The position numbers and the translations under genes were made by a program. A DNA stretch of 32,000 nucleotides, taken from positions 660,001-692,000 of the forward strand of contig NC_017039.1 of assembly GCF_000284455.1 (NCBI RefSeq), read 5' to 3'. Positions within the stretch are counted from its first letter, which is position 1, and the number at the start of each line of letters is the position of its first letter. Below the pieces are notes generated by a model that saw only the letters and a list, made by a program, of their open reading frames with translations, did not search any database and had not been told where the DNA came from. Shown in pieces: positions 1,228 through 21,674 of this stretch. The stretch is from Synechocystis sp. PCC 6803 substr. PCC-P. GTDB lineage: Bacteria; Cyanobacteriota; Cyanobacteriia; Cyanobacteriales; Microcystaceae.

Positions 1228-2921
1228 CAATACTTTTTACCAAAATTCAAGCAATGTCAGACTCTACCGATTTGGATAGAGCAATAGATAAGCTTGACAA
1301 AATTTCTATTAATTTTGGTGCCGTAGATGAACAGATAAGGTGTTTTGCATTTTTATTAGCAATTGCCGAAGAAAATATTGCTGAGATTGTCTTAGGTATA
1401 TTAGTTAGAGGAATCATGAAATATGAACCAAATAGGGTTAATAATGAAGTTCTTTGGCTATTTTTGGCAGCCGTTTTGTCTCGTTCAAATATTACGCCTG
1501 CCAGTGCTTTAAGAATTAGTCTTTTAGGAATAGTATCTCGTATTGAAGATTGGGCATCACCCATTTTTGCATTACTAGTTACCGCATTAGATAGTTTTTT
1601 ACGTAATAGCCTGGAATATGGAGACCCTTTAATTGCAGAGCAAACTTTAGATTTTCTTGCCACTTGGGGCGAGAATTATGCTCAAGCACCTCGTACTTTA
1701 GAGCAAGTTGCAAAGATTAACTCTTTAGCTCGTTTAGTTTTACAAAAAGTTGATGAACCTATTCTTCAGGAGGAATGGTCAGAAGGGTTAGATTTATTTT
1801 TAAATATTGCTCATATTGCTTGTAAAATAAAATATTCAGATCAACGTATTTGGTCGTCTTCAGTAGAACTACTTAAGGATCTCTATCCTGTAAATATTTT
1901 AAATAATAATAATGAATATTCAGACAAGCACCGTCAAGTTCAAAAAAATATTCTAAAATTAATTGATTCTTCTCTGGCTGTAATCGGAACTATTTTTGTT
2001 AGAGGAGGCTTGTCGGTCGTAGTACACATTGAGCATTTAAATCAGGAACTAACATGGTCACTTGGAGCTAGCGCAATAGATAGAATCGAGCGTTTTTTTC
2101 AGGAAGTATCAAGCATTTTCAAACTAGGATTTCCTAAATTTAATCAAATACAATCAATTCAAGGTTCTTGGATTCAGGTTCTTAATCTTCCTCTAACTCC
2201 TAGGGAAGCTAATATTTTAGCAACAGAAATTGCTTCTTTATCCTCAAAAAATTACGAACAAAGTGAGATTAATCAAAATACTATTGATAGTTGGCGAGAA
2301 TGTGCAGAAATCCTTAGTGAAAAGGACTTTAAGATTAACTTATCTGTTTCCACAAAGGATATAGGATTACAGATTATTCCTCCCATTTCTACAGAGAATT
2401 TTGCCAATATCTCTACAGGAGCAACTACTGATTTTAATGAACAAGAAAGAACACACATTAGAATTCTCTCTTGTGATGTTCCACAAGCTAATAATATTGA
2501 AAGAATTTTGGAGCTTGCACAATTATTTGTTCAATATTCATCTTCAACTCAAACTATTAGTGATAAGTTTCTTGAGATAAGAGGAACAAAATCTAGAGAT
2601 TTTTTCTATTATCGTAGAGCAATTGAAATTCTTAACCTTATTGATTGGCGTGGGCATCCGACCAACGTCTGTTCTGCTTTGTTTCGCTTATCTAAAAAAG
2701 AGGCAAAAATGAGACTTCTTGCCTATCAATTTATTTCTTCTAATGTTGGTTCTGCTTGGCTACTGTGGAAAAATGCCAATGATCTTTCAGAGATTAATCC
2801 TGACAGTGCAGAAGAATTTTTAACGGCAACTTGTCCATCACTTTCTCAAAAAACAATTGAACGACGTTCACAAACATTAAAAGCATGGCTCACTATCTTT
2901 CTGCAATACTGGGATTCTTAA
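1224..2921 (+). CDS. Hypothetical protein, 565 aa (islet ORF2)
   Basis: A 565-codon open frame in very AT-rich DNA, where stops should be frequent, argues for real coding sequence. It is coupled to ORF1 by the ATGA overlap. I see no P-loop, no recognisable nuclease, methylase or peptidase motif, no signal peptide and no obvious TM segment. The basic, aromatic C-terminal ~110 aa (RDFFYYRRAIEILNLIDWRG...KAWLTIFLQYW) could be a nucleic-acid-binding module; that is an inference. Confidence 0.7.
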   Translation: MTILFTKIQAMSDSTDLDRAIDKLDKISINFGAVDEQIRCFAFLLAIAEENIAEIVLGILVRGIMKYEPNRVNNEVLWLFLAAVLSRSNITPASALRISLLGIVSRIEDWASPIFALLVTALDSFLRNSLEYGDPLIAEQTLDFLATWGENYAQAPRTLEQVAKINSLARLVLQKVDEPILQEEWSEGLDLFLNIAHIACKIKYSDQRIWSSSVELLKDLYPVNILNNNNEYSDKHRQVQKNILKLIDSSLAVIGTIFVRGGLSVVVHIEHLNQELTWSLGASAIDRIERFFQEVSSIFKLGFPKFNQIQSIQGSWIQVLNLPLTPREANILATEIASLSSKNYEQSEINQNTIDSWRECAEILSEKDFKINLSVSTKDIGLQIIPPISTENFANISTGATTDFNEQERTHIRILSCDVPQANNIERILELAQLFVQYSSSTQTISDKFLEIRGTKSRDFFYYRRAIEILNLIDWRGHPTNVCSALFRLSKKEAKMRLLAYQFISSNVGSAWLLWKNANDLSEINPDSAEEFLTATCPSLSQKTIERRSQTLKAWLTIFLQYWDS

Positions 2922-2984
2922 CGATTTGAGTTAGAACTACGACTGATTTTCATATTCTGGGGTTCATAAAGGGAAAAAATTTAA

Positions 2985-3290
2985 GAGGCGATCGCCGCCC
3001 AAAAAACAGCGGAGGATATTGTCACCCAGGGGAAAGCGGGCAATACGGATAGCGTGCCGGAATTTTCCCTAGCTGAAATTACTTTTCCGGTGAAATTGGC
3101 CTATCTCCTCAGTGCCAGTGGCCTGTGCCCCAGTAGTAGCGAAGGGAGAAGGCAAATCAAGGGAGGAGCGGTGCGCTTAGATGGTGATCGCCTGGGGGAT
3201 GTTAACCAGGAATACCAGAAACCGCAGGATTTGGACGGTAAGGTGCTCCAGGTAGGCAAGAAAAAATTTATTCGCTTCACTGCGAATTAG
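2985..3290 (+). pseudogene. Orphan tyrS 3' fragment (S4-like domain only); direct repeat copy B
   Basis: 101 sense codons in the tyrS frame ([27 protein letters not shown]...[11 protein letters not shown]) are closed upstream by TAA at 2982-2984. There is no catalytic domain and no ATG; the track's 3054 start is a GTG. Confidence 0.8.
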
Positions 3291-3443
3291 CAATTAAAAT
3301 AGTAATTTATAACTACTCTCTCCGTCGGCGATCGAGGTAGAATTGGGGCGAACTGATTTGACCGGTCAATCCTGCCCATTCCTGCCTGATCCGTCCAGAT
3401 TCAACCAATTACTGCCCAACCTTAGAATTGAGGTTATCGCCCC

Positions 3444-4495: not shown

Positions 4496-4882
4496 TCAAG
4501 AAAGTAATGAGAGGCGCCAGTTGCGTAGTAGTTCTATGTTACCATTGACCCTAAATTCGGCAAATATTGCCATGGTGATATCAACCATGTGGGCTGACCT
4601 GGAGACAACTTTCGTGGGGCGATGAAATCTAGCAAACCAATGACGGTTATCTGAGTTGTTTCTCTCAATTCCTACTGTTTCTCTTTTGCTAATCCCATGA
4701 AACGCATCGGGATGTTCATCCAGCAGTTGTTGATAGGGCCTCCAGTCATCGGTGCAGTACACCGTCACTTTCCACTTTGCCAGTCTCTCCAGCAAACGAC
4801 TCAGGGTTTGACTATCACGATTTCCCAGTTCCCAGTTCCCAGTCGATGAGTCTCCCAGTAACACGCTCATATGCCTTATCAT
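4496..4882 (-). mobile_element. IS1-family-like transposase, C-terminal part only (5'-truncated IS remnant)
   Basis: YCTDDWRPYQQLL and GIERNNSDNRHWFARFHRPTKVVSRS match the IS1-type DDE C-terminal pattern (TD-W--Y ... IER-N---R----R--RKT---S). Only about 120 nt separate this ORF from the next gene, so the N-terminal HTH/first-D region has no room. No convincing terminal inverted repeats are visible. Confidence 0.65.
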
Positions 4883-18388: not shown

Positions 18389-19125
18389 TTCAATTCGGTT
18401 TGGAAAAGTTGTTTCACTTTTTGCCAAGCATCGGCGGCCGCTTCGGCGTTATAGCTAGCCCTTTGGTCACAGAAAAAGCCATGGTCTGCGCCTGGGTAAC
18501 GGAAAATTTTATGGTTCACCTGATACTTGGTTAAAGCCTGTTCAATCTGCTCCGTATCTGCCATGGGAATGCTGGTATCTTCCAAGCCGAAGAAGGCGTA
18601 TAAAGTGCCCTGAATTTTATCGGTATAGGTAATGGGCGGTTCCGCTGTCCCTGGAGCCCAATGGGGAATACCCGCGCCGTAAAAGGAAGCCGTGGCCTTG
18701 ACTGTGGGTAAACTAGCCCCTAAATAGACAATCCAACCACCAAAACAAAAACCAATTAATCCTACTTCTTCCGGTTTAACGTTGGGTAAAGTTTGGGCGT
18801 AGGCAATGGTGGCTTCCAGATCGCTCAAAATTTCTGCACTACTAGTCTGATCTTTGAGCTTTCTACCCGCTTCAATACCTTCTGGGGTATAACCCTCTTC
18901 AAAACCTGGCGCTTGCCGTTGATAAATGGCCGGGGCGATCGCCACGTAACCTTCTTTAGCCACCCGTTCTGTCACGTCCCGGATATGGCTATTAACTCCA
19001 AAAATTTCCTGAATCACAATCACCACGGGATATTGACCCACGGCCACCGGCTCGGCCAAATAGCCTGCAATTTGCAAATTTTGGTTGGGAATGGTGACCA
19101 AGGTGGTCTTGATGTCAACAGTCAT
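18385..19125 (-). CDS. Dienelactone hydrolase family protein (carboxymethylenebutenolidase-like)
   Basis: PVVIVIQEIFGVNSHIRDV, a nucleophile-elbow region GLIGFCFGG, and the C-terminal YPGADHGF. Confidence 0.85.
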   Translation of the reverse strand: MTVDIKTTLVTIPNQNLQIAGYLAEPVAVGQYPVVIVIQEIFGVNSHIRDVTERVAKEGYVAIAPAIYQRQAPGFEEGYTPEGIEAGRKLKDQTSSAEILSDLEATIAYAQTLPNVKPEEVGLIGFCFGGWIVYLGASLPTVKATASFYGAGIPHWAPGTAEPPITYTDKIQGTLYAFFGLEDTSIPMADTEQIEQALTKYQVNHKIFRYPGADHGFFCDQRASYNAEAAADAWQKVKQLFQTELK

Positions 19126-19396
19126 AAACTACCCGGAAATAATAACTCCTAGCCTATCTCAAAATCTGTACTGAAAGCCCTGTCTGAGAACGGCGATCGC
19201 TTCTGTCGGCTACTAATTCCGCTTGTGGGCCCCATGAAAAAGCAATAGGAGAAATTTACGTCTGCTGGATTTAGGCTCCCAGAGGGAAAACATTATCTGC
19301 CAACGCCGGGAAAAACGTTAAAATCACAAATTGTAACTGTTGTTACTTAAAGGTAACCACCGTTGTGTTTTTTGCAATCTAAGGGAATTGAAAATA

Positions 19397-19612
19397 ATGT
19401 TTAAACCCAGCTTACTTTTGTCTTTGCTTGTTGTGGGCTGTTTGCTAACGGTTACCGGTTGCGGTGGTGGCAATCAGAGGGAGGAAGGTCAACCCACTCA
19501 ACAGAACATCGAACAGCAAGAAAATAACAACGGGAATGCCAATACCAATGATGATGATAATGACAATAACGACGACGATGAGGAAGATGACAACAAAGAT
19601 GGAGATGATTAA
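19397..19612 (+). CDS. Small lipoprotein with an extremely acidic D/N-rich tail (71 aa)
   Basis: The signal peptide MFKPSLLLSLLVVGCLLTVTGC has lipobox-like VVGC/VTGC. AAGGGA lies ~10 nt upstream of the ATG. The tail is NNNGNANTNDDDNDNNDDDEEDDNKDGDD. Confidence 0.6.
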   Translation: MFKPSLLLSLLVVGCLLTVTGCGGGNQREEGQPTQQNIEQQENNNGNANTNDDDNDNNDDDEEDDNKDGDD

Positions 19613-19629
19613 GGCGGTTTGATTCCAAC

Positions 19630-19773
19630 TACCCCAGTGAAGATTCTTTTCATTAGCAACGGCCACGGAGAAGACCTCAACGCCGGCCTGATCATCGATG
19701 CCCTGCAACGGTGATCGCCGGAATTTGATCTATTTGTTCTGCCTTTGGTGGGAGAAAGTAAAGCCTATCAAAA
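19630..19773 (+). pseudogene. Duplicated 5' end of the LpxB-related gene with an in-frame stop (direct repeat copy 1)
   Basis: 134 of 144 nt are identical to 20492-20635. The GTG at 19637 opens the same frame (VKILFISNGHGEDLNAGLIIDALQR), then TGA at 19712-19714 replaces the CGA of the intact copy. Confidence 0.85.
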
Positions 19774-19791
19774 GGCCCTTTGATCTAAACC

Positions 19792-20280
19792 ATGAAAAGT
19801 ACGGTTTACATTGAAACTAGTGTGATTAGCTATCTTGCGGCTCGTCCCAGTCGGGATGTCGTTGCGGCTGGACATCAACAGGTCAGCTACGAATGGTGGG
19901 ATACAGAGCGCACGAAGTTTTCCCTTTACACTTCAACTCTAGTCCTTCGGGAGGCCAGTAGCGGTAACCCAGAGGCCGCATCAGCCCGTTTAGAATGGTT
20001 GCAGGGGATTCCCGTTATTGCTATCACCCAAGAGGCTGAGGCTCTTTCTGAATATCTTATTCAAAGAGCAGCCCTTCCCCAGAAAGCAGTGGCAGACGCA
20101 TTACATATTGCAACGGCGGCTTATCACCAACTTAATTTTTTGCTTACTTGGAATTGTAAGCACATTGCCAACGCAGCTAAACGTCACCGTATTGAATGTG
20201 CCTGCCGAGAATTTGGCTTTGAGTCCCCTATCCTTTGTACCCCCGAGGAATTACTCGGAGTTAATTCTGATGTGGAATGA
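19792..20280 (+). CDS. PIN-like (VapC-type) nuclease domain protein, putative toxin
   Basis: VYIETSVISYL (acidic residue after beta1), DALHIATAA, LLTWNCKHI, and a C-terminal ILCTPEELL. This is a variant PIN pattern, with E instead of the first D. Confidence 0.55.
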   Translation: MKSTVYIETSVISYLAARPSRDVVAAGHQQVSYEWWDTERTKFSLYTSTLVLREASSGNPEAASARLEWLQGIPVIAITQEAEALSEYLIQRAALPQKAVADALHIATAAYHQLNFLLTWNCKHIANAAKRHRIECACREFGFESPILCTPEELLGVNSDVE

Positions 20281-20470
20281 CCCTATAGTTGAAGAAACAC
20301 GACGGTTACGAGACGAGTATGCGGCCAAACATGGTCACAACATCCACGCTATTGTGGCAGATCTCAAGAGTTGGCAAGAGCAAGGCTTTCCCCTTGTAGG
20401 CCAGAAAACTGAAGTGCTTCAGCCTAAACTTTTATCCTCCCTAAATCCTCACGATCAAGAGTCAGAATGA
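20270..20470 (+). CDS. Small partner protein (66 aa), putative antitoxin/regulator of the PIN-like gene
   Basis: ATG 20270 overlaps the PIN ORF end by 11 nt. MWNDPIVEETRRLRDEYAAKHGHNIHAIVADLK resembles small proteins I recall next to this PIN subtype, unverified. The longer 150-aa ORF in the track is an in-frame upstream extension inside the PIN gene. Confidence 0.45.
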   Translation: MWNDPIVEETRRLRDEYAAKHGHNIHAIVADLKSWQEQGFPLVGQKTEVLQPKLLSSLNPHDQESE

Positions 20471-20491
20471 CCAAAGTGGCTCTATCAGAAT

Positions 20492-20635
20492 TACCCCAGT
20501 GAAGATTCTTTTCATTAGCAACGGCCACGGAGAAGACCTCAACGCTGGCCTGATCATCGATGCCCTGCAACGGCGATCACCAGAATTTGAGTTATTTGCT
20601 CTGCCCTTGGTGGGGGAAGGTAAAGCCTATCAAAA
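20492..20635 (+). repeat. Direct repeat copy 2: the 5' end of the intact LpxB-related gene
   Basis: See 19630-19773. The first 54 nt are identical; 10 differences follow. Confidence 0.85.
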
Positions 20636-21674
20636 TAGGGGAATTAGCATCATTGCGCCTACCCAACCTTTACCCTCGGGAGGGATCATTTACACTGGCT
20701 TTTTAACCTGGTGGCGGGACATTGTTGGGGGTTTAGTGGGTCTAACTATTAAGCAAATTAAGGCCCTACTCAAACAAAAACATCAGTTTGACCTGATTGT
20801 GGCGATCGGGGACATTGTGCCCCTGGCTTTCGCCCGTCTAAGTGGGAAACCCTACCTAAGTTTTTTGGTGGCCAATTCCAGTTACTACGAAGGCCGGTTG
20901 TCCCTACCCTTTACCGTGACCTGGTGTTTAAAATCTCGTCATTGCCTAGGGGCGATCGCCAAAGATAATTTTACTGCCCAAGATTTAAGTCAACGGGGCA
21001 TCAACATCCGCTGGTTGGGCTATCCCATTATGGACGCTTTACAACCGACGGGACAGCAGCTACGACGGGACAGCAAAACTCTCATTGCCCTTTTGCCCGG
21101 TAGCCGGGTGCCGGAAGCGGTACATAATTTGGCTCAATTATTGCCCTTGTGTGGAGCCATTGCCCAGGAAAAAGCAGTGGATTTTTGGGCTGCCCTCGTG
21201 CCGGCAGTGACGGTGGAACATTTACAAAACCTAGCAAGGGAGCATGGTTGGCAATACCACGGCGATCGCCTGGAAAAAGATAATTGCACCATTCATTGCT
21301 CCTGGGATCAATTTGCTGACATTTTGCACCAAGCGGATTTAGTGTTGGGTATGGCGGGGACCGCGGTGGAGCAGGCCGTGGGTTTAGGCAAGCCAGTGTT
21401 GCAAATCCCTGGTCATGGTCCCCAATTTACCTATGGTTTTGCCGAAGCTCAAATGCGATTATTGGGCTGTTCCGTCACCACCGTCGGCAAAAATCCCCAG
21501 GAAGCTAATTTAATCAGTCAAGCTAGTCAGAAAGCGCTGGCAATTCTGGCGGATCAACATTATCAGCAACGCTGTCGGCACAATGGACAAGAGCGCATTG
21601 GCTCCCCCGGTGGTTCCCTGGCGATCGCCAACCACATTGCCGCAACTGCCAAAACTTTGGCTGACAAGGGGTAG
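20499..21674 (+). CDS. Lipid-A-disaccharide synthase (LpxB)-related GT-B glycosyltransferase-like protein
   Basis: KILFISNGHGEDL N-terminus, LLPGSRVPEAV (LpxB-type LLPGSR motif), GTAVEQAVGLGKP. GTG start. Confidence 0.6.
   Translation: MKILFISNGHGEDLNAGLIIDALQRRSPEFELFALPLVGEGKAYQNRGISIIAPTQPLPSGGIIYTGFLTWWRDIVGGLVGLTIKQIKALLKQKHQFDLIVAIGDIVPLAFARLSGKPYLSFLVANSSYYEGRLSLPFTVTWCLKSRHCLGAIAKDNFTAQDLSQRGINIRWLGYPIMDALQPTGQQLRRDSKTLIALLPGSRVPEAVHNLAQLLPLCGAIAQEKAVDFWAALVPAVTVEHLQNLAREHGWQYHGDRLEKDNCTIHCSWDQFADILHQADLVLGMAGTAVEQAVGLGKPVLQIPGHGPQFTYGFAEAQMRLLGCSVTTVGKNPQEANLISQASQKALAILADQHYQQRCRHNGQERIGSPGGSLAIANHIAATAKTLADKG

Follow-up and report, generated by a model that had tools for sequence, protein, structure and literature searches.

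A repeat-flanked PIN-domain gene pair in Synechocystis sp. PCC 6803 as a probable ancient insertion with long target duplication

How does a small module of the toxin–antitoxin (TA) type come to lie inside an existing operon, and remain there, when no mobility gene accompanies it? The question is raised by a stretch of 32,000 nucleotides (nt) of Synechocystis sp. PCC 6803 substr. PCC-P (contig NC_017039.1, positions 660,001 to 692,000 of the forward strand; below, the window, in whose own numbering positions are given), in which the VapC-like PIN-domain gene slr1383 and its small partner gene ssr2317 are bracketed by two direct copies of the beginning of the gene that follows them, a lipid-A-disaccharide synthase-related (LpxB-related) gene of the family TIGR03492. 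We consider it probable that this arrangement goes back to a single ancient insertion of the two-gene module into the operon, that the insertion was accompanied by the duplication of ~169 bp of target DNA, and that the duplicates later underwent gene conversion while the insert was maintained.

The direct repeat and the module between its copies

The repeats, the module and the duplicated gene are arranged as follows.

19605..19773, + strand: upstream repeat copy, with spacer, GTG (19637) and 46 codons of the TIGR03492 gene; dead in PCC 6803
19774..19791, + strand: cassette leader of 18 nt, the sole non-coding DNA that would have been brought in 5' of the PIN gene
19792..20280, + strand: slr1383, VapC-like PIN-domain gene, 162 amino acids (aa), assigned by Pfam PIN and fold model
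20270..20470, + strand: ssr2317, partner of 66 aa and presumed antitoxin, a conserved PIN-adjacent open reading frame (ORF)
20467..20635, + strand: downstream repeat copy, continuous with the functional TIGR03492 gene
20499..21674, + strand: lipid-A-disaccharide synthase-related gene of the family TIGR03492, 391 aa, not disrupted by the duplication

A repeat search of the 32-kb window returned the two-copy direct repeat 19605-19773 versus 20467-20635, which is 169 nt long and 88% identical. Its core (19630-19773 versus 20492-20635) is identical at 134/144 positions (93%) and has its first mismatch at 19684, so that the initial 54 nt are perfect; recounting gave the same figures as an earlier note on this DNA that had been made from the letters alone. 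When the left and right flanks of the cassette were compared by blastn, they aligned over 147 nt at 92.5% identity (E=1e-57), and the repeat is therefore not a product of chance. Each copy holds the GTG start and ~46 codons of the TIGR03492 gene, whose product matches the NCBIfam model at 470.8 bits over model positions 1-394 and is complete from residue 4. The upstream copy reads VKILFISNGHGEDLNAGLIIDALQR and then stops, at a TGA (19712-19714) that stands in the place of a CGA in the functional copy. Its description in the earlier note as a dead gene head was confirmed, as was the tally of the remaining nine core differences, six of which are synonymous and three of which are the replacements D/E, V/A and S/G.

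Over the 25 nt to the left of the core, the two copies agree at 14/25 positions in PCC 6803 (P ~3e-3) and at 16/25 in Synechocystis sp. LEGE 06083 (P ~2e-4), and the spacer at the empty site of PCC 6714 matches each copy equally, at 14/25. Based on this left-hand homology and the likeness of the PCC 6714 spacer, the duplication spans ~169 nt, which places the stop codon of the partner gene, a TGA, within the right-hand copy, at its very first bases. Only two copies of the repeat were seen in the stretches scanned, namely the 32-kb window and the 13-kb loci of relatives. An assembly artefact was ruled out on the grounds that the cassette structure was present in 24/24 contigs encoding an identical TIGR03492 protein, complete genomes among them.

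The insert between the repeats amounts to ~690 bp and comprises the 18-nt leader and two ORFs, with nothing else. No mobility gene was found in it, and the earlier statement that no recombinase gene lies between the repeats was borne out, only the PIN and partner ORFs being present there; the nearest transposase fragment, of IS1 (4496-4882), is 15 kb away. The leader is identical at 15/18 positions between PCC 6803 and LEGE 06083, is absent at empty sites and is not conserved in related cassettes elsewhere. An Rfam scan of 19100-20800 returned no RNA family. The ATG of ssr2317 overlaps the stop of slr1383 (ATGTGGAATGA, an 11-nt overlap).

The product of slr1383 matched Pfam PIN at 24.7 bits (cut-off 23.6); NCBIfam and PADLOC gave no match, and a sequence search of the PDB with the PIN profile returned no relative. 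Its AlphaFold2 model (pLDDT 91.3) had VapC20, VapC2 and VapC1 as top PDB matches, with target-normalised TM values of 0.68-0.72, and the NCBI name of the protein, for which there were 4722 homologues, is VapC family toxin. Residues E8, E54 and D102 were invariant across 39 sequences, giving three acidic positions, with no fourth identified. An identical PIN protein is encoded within CP129343.1 (673194-685682) and in other PCC 6803-derived records. For ssr2317, no Pfam, NCBIfam or PADLOC family was matched and every homologue was annotated as "hypothetical"; its model consists of a two-helix hairpin (residues 5-38) and a disordered tail, and a fold search of the PDB with this model returned no match.

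The pairing of the two genes is widespread. Nearly all of 80 metagenome loci, which were taken as PIN homologues at 47-69% identity, have a conserved ORF directly after or overlapping the PIN stop, and these partner ORFs share the motif MW-DPIVEE-R--R--YAA-FNYDL-AI--DLK; the order PIN-then-partner is therefore a conserved two-gene module. The pair slr1383/ssr2317 was listed as a predicted type II TA system of the order T-AT by Kopfmann et al. 2016 (PMC4963859), where the transcription start site (TSS) of slr1383 is placed 459 nt upstream and repeats are not mentioned. Neither gene is mentioned in a preprint that re-annotates PCC 6803 from ribosome profiling. The cassette DNA had no match among 72,556 plasmids, and in a search at the protein level the PIN family turned up in no phage and in just 3 plasmid records, with no vector identified. 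Taken as a whole, the structure upholds the earlier description of a PIN-like gene and small partner forming a cassette between repeats that are built from the head of the LpxB-related gene.

Occupied sites, empty sites and the age of the insert

In S. salina LEGE 00031 (locus L001) and in LEGE 06083 (L005) the gene order is the lipoprotein gene that also precedes the cassette in PCC 6803, a copy of the gene head, the PIN gene, the partner and the TIGR03492 gene, and the junctions are as in PCC 6803. The upstream copy in these two strains is an uninterrupted ORF of 45-51 aa, and since it is uninterrupted in S. salina the TGA is specific to PCC 6803. Separately from the question of the insertion, the partner gene of LEGE 00031 has a 1-nt deletion after codon ~42 (GFPL; L001 5775-5946) that alters and shortens the C-terminal tail, and the LEGE 06083 copy is intact and otherwise identical; the disordered tail may be decaying there, or the assembly may be in error.

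The earlier note had proposed that related strains be searched for an allele in which the lipoprotein gene is followed directly by the LpxB-related gene, and such alleles were found. PCC 6714 (L014-L016; CP007542.1, which is L014, and two further assemblies) has an empty site at which the TIGR03492 gene comes straight after the lipoprotein gene, and the surrounding synteny (V4R, Fer2, phycobilisome, Fer2, TPR, kinase) is kept. L019, a 279-kb contig of a more distant relative, keeps this synteny, and its site is empty too. In both, a small ORF orthologous to the lipoprotein gene is located directly 5' of TIGR03492 (L014 5713-5976; L019 4779-4976), and remoter TIGR03492 loci are likewise without the cassette, so the duplicated arrangement is not universal. 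The tree of TIGR03492 proteins, ((6803,(06083,00031)),6714),(P0131,P0124), makes a single gain on the stem of the clade of PCC 6803 and S. salina the most parsimonious reading of this distribution. Separate insertions in each lineage were considered and rejected, given the identical junctions, an upstream-specific T that is common to the lineages at column 148 of the repeat alignment described below, and synonymous divergence (dS) of the cassette equal to that of its flanks.

The age of the insert was judged from dS and from the ratio of nonsynonymous to synonymous divergence (dN/dS), each computed for PCC 6803 versus LEGE 06083.

slr1383 (PIN): dS 0.43, dN/dS 0.09
ssr2317 (partner): dS 0.54, dN/dS 0.12
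TIGR03492 gene (rest): dS 0.51, dN/dS 0.12
GAF-PAS gene: dS 0.57, dN/dS 0.06

The dS of the cassette (0.43-0.54) is on par with that of the flanks (0.51-0.57), indicating that the cassette has diverged in step with its surroundings since the common ancestor and that the insertion is old, in agreement with the earlier view that this is not a fresh duplication. The dN/dS values of ~0.1 point to purifying selection on both cassette genes and therefore to maintenance of the insertion. The closest relatives of the cassette outside Synechocystis are only ~74% identical, and those close relatives that are named to a taxon are all proteobacterial (Competibacteraceae, Kentrum, Electrothrix, Thiodictyon). 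Together with a GC content at third codon positions (GC3) of 0.40 in the cassette versus 0.48-0.53 in the flanks, these relatives are consistent with an old foreign origin.

Exchange between the copies and rival histories

The relationship of the repeat copies to one another was examined in a seven-sequence alignment (A3), to which all column numbers refer. At columns 56, 68, 104, 116 and 143 the states of PCC 6803 and S. salina differ in both copies at once, and the dS of 0.17-0.22 between the copies of one genome compares with 0.50 between functional copies that are orthologous. The sole core site at which upstream and downstream copies are cleanly separated in all genomes is column 148 (GTT vs GCx); the rest of the upstream-specific changes fall within the last ~40 nt and are lineage-specific. 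In the downstream copy, columns 99 and 128 differ between LEGE 06083 and LEGE 00031, the latter having the upstream-type state, a pattern consistent with a recent conversion tract. These alignment patterns indicate recurrent gene conversion between the copies. Upstream copies compared between lineages have a dN/dS of 0.16, although they are dead or truncated, and both this value and the selected-looking differences would be produced by repeated overwriting from the copy that is under selection. The excess of synonymous differences between the copies is thus attributable to concerted evolution with the functional copy, and an allelic origin is not needed to account for it.

Such an origin, from two diverged orthologous alleles, is what the earlier note had suggested, and it was not supported. 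It would have the cassette arrive linked to a foreign allele of the gene head and integrate by homology on one side, either through homology-facilitated illegitimate recombination or through Campbell integration of DNA from a donor in a different lineage, so that the donor allele would stand upstream and the resident one downstream. In its favor, the differences between the copies are mostly synonymous or conservative (six synonymous, three conservative and one nonsense), the downstream-type state at columns 95, 99 and 141 is that of PCC 6714 and the differing upstream-type state is shared across lineages, and a second repeat in the window, at tyrS, has a strongly diverged distal part. These points are outweighed by the five lineage-specific substitutions that both copies have in common, by a within-genome dS far under the orthologous value, and by the observation that just one core column cleanly splits upstream from downstream copies in all genomes. 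Furthermore, the states specific to the upstream copy match neither outgroup allele (PCC 6714, L019), and the synonymous excess, like the upstream omega of 0.16, is what conversion from a selected copy predicts. We regard the allelic account as quite unlikely.

Slightly less credible still, and in our judgment decidedly improbable, is that the cassette was ancestral and that the lineages of PCC 6714 and L019 lost it by recombination between the repeats, their empty sites being excision scars. Recombination of the 144-169-nt repeats would recreate the exact empty site, and the gene conversion described above means that the repeats are recombinationally active. Nevertheless, two independent losses would be required on the tree as against one gain, the remoter TIGR03492 loci also have no cassette, and the ~74% identity of the nearest outside relatives, the proteobacterial affiliation of those that are named and a GC3 under that of the flanks are all consistent with a foreign arrival. 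Nor has a loss been caught in progress, in that none of the 24 PCC 6803-type contigs contained an excised variant.

The remaining two accounts are best weighed alongside the occurrence of the same signature at other loci. In 63 of the 80 metagenome loci both flanks extended for 150 nt or more, and these loci were searched for direct repeats of 30 nt or longer located within 1 kb on each side. Such repeats bracketed 12/63 members of the PIN-partner family versus 10/336 control positions (Fisher P=1.6e-5), a comparison that tells less strongly for our reading than its P value alone, in that the control positions were not independent and some of the family repeats are attC-like integron sites by motif; inverted repeats were found at 1/63 family members. 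The bracketing repeat is the 3' end of an HTH/Xre gene at L047 (153 nt), the 3' end of a T2SSF gene at L063 (71 nt) and the 5' end of a DUF2442 gene at L088 (54 nt). At L036 (3768-7104), four successive PIN-type cassettes follow the 3' end of a 1275-aa WD40-repeat gene, and copies of that gene's 3' end (...RLTCAERKQFFLEEV..; ~55-107 nt, 90-97% identity) are located between the cassettes. A further copy stands between the end of the WD40 gene and the first cassette, and the remnant copies are closer to each other than to the resident end; the locus looks like a TA cassette array built on a repeated gene-end unit.

Repeats of this kind were also seen outside the family. In ~92 kb of loci from cyanobacteria, every dispersed direct repeat that was 40 nt or longer bracketed a TA module, namely the L001 cassette or a BrnT/BrnA pair at L017. 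The latter, at 2664-3342 in a relative that resembles Synechocystis, has thiC on one side and an rlmL-like gene on the other and is flanked by 47-nt direct repeats at 87% identity; a GCGATCGC site precedes the left copy, and the stop of the antitoxin gene falls within the right one, just as that of ssr2317 does in PCC 6803. Within the window itself, the 3' end of tyrS forms a 231-nt direct repeat (383-613 and 2984-3214) at 94% identity. The insert that it brackets (687-2983) is of low GC (GC3 0.20-0.25) and contains two ORFs without an assigned function (874-1227 and 1224-2921), for which there was one weak DUF7226 match and no PADLOC match; a remnant ORF of 78 aa (3054-3290), from the S4 domain at the C-terminus of tyrS, follows the insert, and the last ~25 codons of the tyrS copies are far more diverged than the 231-nt core. 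The IS1 fragment noted above lies ~1.2 kb 3' of this remnant as a 128-aa ORF on the - strand that matches DDE_Tnp_IS1 at 44.8 bits and is apparently a fragment. The cases at L047, L063, L088, L036, L017 and tyrS are known from occupied sites alone, with no empty-site comparator.

Gene-end integrating elements bring a surrogate gene end with them, and long direct repeats result. It could accordingly be proposed that the repeats at the PCC 6803 locus are the attL and attR of a degraded site-specific island with a surrogate 5' end, in the style of SXT at prfC, of which only the TA module is left. Supporting this possibility are the typical association of surrogate gene ends and long repeats with such elements (discussed in PMC2853133), the frequent role of TA modules in stabilising islands (PMC4963859), and the resemblance of the locus to SXT at prfC and to islands at tRNA and tmRNA genes in having long repeats from a gene end and a target gene that stays functional. 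However, those islands encode an integrase and have a defined att core, and neither is present at the cassette locus, where no integrase or other mobility gene was found and the ORFs of the ~690-bp insert reach both junctions. The identical structure in both lineages would also require that the degradation predate their split, and the bracketing repeats of the independent family insertions come from unrelated genes (HTH/Xre, T2SSF, DUF2442, WD40), differ in length and share no core. An island of this kind appears very improbable.

Members of the family at L045, L048 and L052 lie between attC-like repeats as judged by motif (RYYYAAC ... GTTRRRY, with internal inverted repeats), some of them in multi-cassette arrays, and those at L044 and L072 probably do so as well; by this motif assignment, the PIN-partner family would also travel as integron cassettes, which fits with its being a compact mobile cassette. 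That an integron integrase placed the Synechocystis module at a secondary site is nonetheless barely conceivable, for the insert has no attC and no RYYYAAC/GTTRRRY pair, neither junction has a GTTRRRY core, the partner stop abuts the repeat, the flanking repeats are demonstrably target-gene sequence, and to our knowledge integrase-mediated insertion of a cassette does not duplicate ~170 bp of its target.

Routes of insertion, the host operon and significance

Under the single ancient insertion that we consider probable, slr1383 and the translationally coupled ssr2317 would have entered once, in the ancestor that PCC 6803 and S. salina have in common, between the lipoprotein gene and the TIGR03492 gene of an existing operon, and ~169 bp of resident DNA (the spacer together with the gene's start codon and its first 46 codons) would have been duplicated. 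Because the gene head was duplicated, the TIGR03492 gene would have kept its own translation start and N-terminus, and the upstream copy would have been turned into a dead gene head. The copies would then have exchanged sequence repeatedly, leaving the 5' ~105 nt near-identical within each genome. The repeats would be a substrate for precise RecA-mediated deletion, yet the module persisted in two lineages at a dS of ~0.5, from which we infer selection against its loss, via addiction or another benefit. A cost of loss is the best explanation for the persistence of a deletable structure under purifying selection, and it could also explain why restriction–modification (RM) and TA genes are the cargo with which this mode is seen.

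Synechocystis is naturally competent and polyploid. These properties make it plausible that the founding event was a host-mediated illegitimate joining, or a template switch, that captured incoming DNA with junctions ~170 bp apart, and we judge the chances that this was the route to be evenly balanced. A second route, possible if somewhat unlikely, is the Campbell-type single crossover of a circular unit composed of repeat and cassette that came from an earlier site. Crossovers of this type are routine in Synechocystis genetics, and the products resemble the locus in having an insert between two homologous copies and in being reversible by recombination between those copies; however, the route needs a prior circle in which the cassette was already joined to the gene head, and it would explain spread rather than the first association. 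A circle of this kind has not been observed.

The closest parallels to the locus are RM gene insertions with long target duplication, whose direct repeats measure 30-420 bp (Furuta, Abe & Kobayashi 2010, NAR 38:2428, PMC2853133; Nobusato et al. 2000, Gene 259:99). In those cases a translation start or stop is often included in the repeats, with the target gene kept intact, mobility genes are absent, a single repeat copy is found in a related genome and operon-like targets occur (PMC2853133). They come mostly from naturally competent species, with one in the cyanobacterium Microcystis, and DNA breakage by the RM system has been suggested as their common cause (PMC2853133). Measured by the features that Furuta et al. 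2010 used, the Synechocystis locus has repeats of >30 bp, a relative whose empty site holds one copy with similarity on both sides, no mobility gene in or next to the insert, and an insert of <20 kb; the cargo is a PIN toxin-type gene and its partner, not an RM system, and it can be counted in the class only if the class is defined by insertion mode and not by cargo. By its anatomy, which matches that of the RM cases, we take the cassette to be a further case of insertion with long target duplication. The likeness lies in a small selfish unit without mobility genes, repeats of tens to hundreds of bp, a relative with an empty site, a repeat that spans a translation start and insertion inside an operon. 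In contrast to the RM insertions, the cargo has an RNase fold, so that breakage of DNA by the cargo is not directly applicable as a cause. The event is also ancient (dS ~0.5), and there is concerted evolution between the repeats, of which the RM cases compared gave no report. Our search of the literature, which was incomplete in coverage, found no report of TA modules associated with long direct repeats or long target duplications; the precedent came from RM papers alone.

These parallels raise the question of whether insertion with long target duplication is a genuine recombinase-free mobility pathway common to TA and RM addiction modules, as opposed to rare accidents that selection has filtered, a proposal that we view as clearly unlikely. 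In such a pathway a dedicated host route would place cassettes at gene ends with 50-400-bp duplications, or alternatively the PIN protein would itself take part, for example through a structure-specific nuclease activity on DNA, and the repeats would serve circle excision, reinsertion and the build-up of arrays such as that at L036.

The operon into which the module would have been inserted contributes two further features upstream of the repeats.

19297..19324, + strand: promoter-like site CTGCCA-16-TAAAAT, from a consensus scan; fits the published TSS
19397..19612, + strand: small acidic lipoprotein-like gene, 71 aa; upstream neighbor at occupied and empty sites

The published TSS maps to ~19333 (19792-459), just 3' of the promoter-like site, and the consensus scan of 19400-20900 on the + strand returned no further promoter-like site and none within the insert. 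Based on the scan and this one TSS, the host operon promoter appears to drive the lipoprotein gene and the cassette, and probably the TIGR03492 gene as well. Upstream of the lipoprotein gene of PCC 6803, at ~19195-19340, only the last ~90-140 nt of a Ser/Thr kinase gene remain, and the gene is intact at the same position in S. salina, LEGE 06083, PCC 6714 and L019; a dienelactone hydrolase / acetate kinase cluster is joined there instead. Homology to the kinase begins near a GGCGATCGC (HIP1) site, the -10 box of the operon overlaps the former stop region of the kinase, and the remnant looks like a rearrangement breakpoint specific to PCC 6803. At the cassette itself, several short-read contigs (L010, L011, L013 and L104) begin ~40-130 nt 5' of the PIN gene, by position in the upstream repeat copy, and the 144-169-nt repeat probably breaks short-read assemblies at this locus.

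A number of points weigh against the history that we favor. There are only two independent occupied lineages, LEGE 00031 and LEGE 06083 being ~98-99% identical, and the empty sites could in principle be secondary, in that recombination between the repeats regenerates exactly that sequence. Synonymous sites are near saturation versus PCC 6714 (dS 0.8-1.1), which makes the polarisation of single sites unreliable, and a slightly diverged foreign copy may have been present at the time of insertion. The mechanism of the duplication is inferred, not observed; the Synechocystis junctions have no sequence in common with the upstream and downstream noncoding flanks of L021-L024, the closest foreign cassettes, and neither a donor boundary nor microhomology could be defined from these flanks. 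The presumed roles of slr1383 and ssr2317 as toxin and antitoxin are a prediction that draws on a prediction table, sequence and fold. The pair is similar to VapBC in its VapC-like PIN fold, its small and tightly coupled neighbor and the purifying selection on both genes, but it differs in that the toxin gene is first, in that the insert has no promoter-like site of its own by the consensus scan, and in that ssr2317 is without a relative in Pfam, NCBIfam or the PDB. For VapBC it is atypical that the partner is downstream and that no DNA-binding domain can be recognised in it.

The movement of chromosomal TA modules without mobility genes is poorly explained, and this locus provides a clean, dated example in a tractable, naturally transformable model, with occupied and empty alleles in sequenced relatives. 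It would extend insertion with long target duplication from RM genes to an RNase-type toxin module, and cargo of that type weakens the idea that cleavage of DNA by the cargo causes the duplication. The locus also presents a pseudogene fragment that has been trading sequence with a functional gene start over long periods, a dead gene head that is open to mis-annotation as a small ORF, and a repeat that appears to break short-read assemblies. The extension to such cargo suggests instead that unstable, repeat-flanked insertions are seen mainly where the cargo penalises its own loss.

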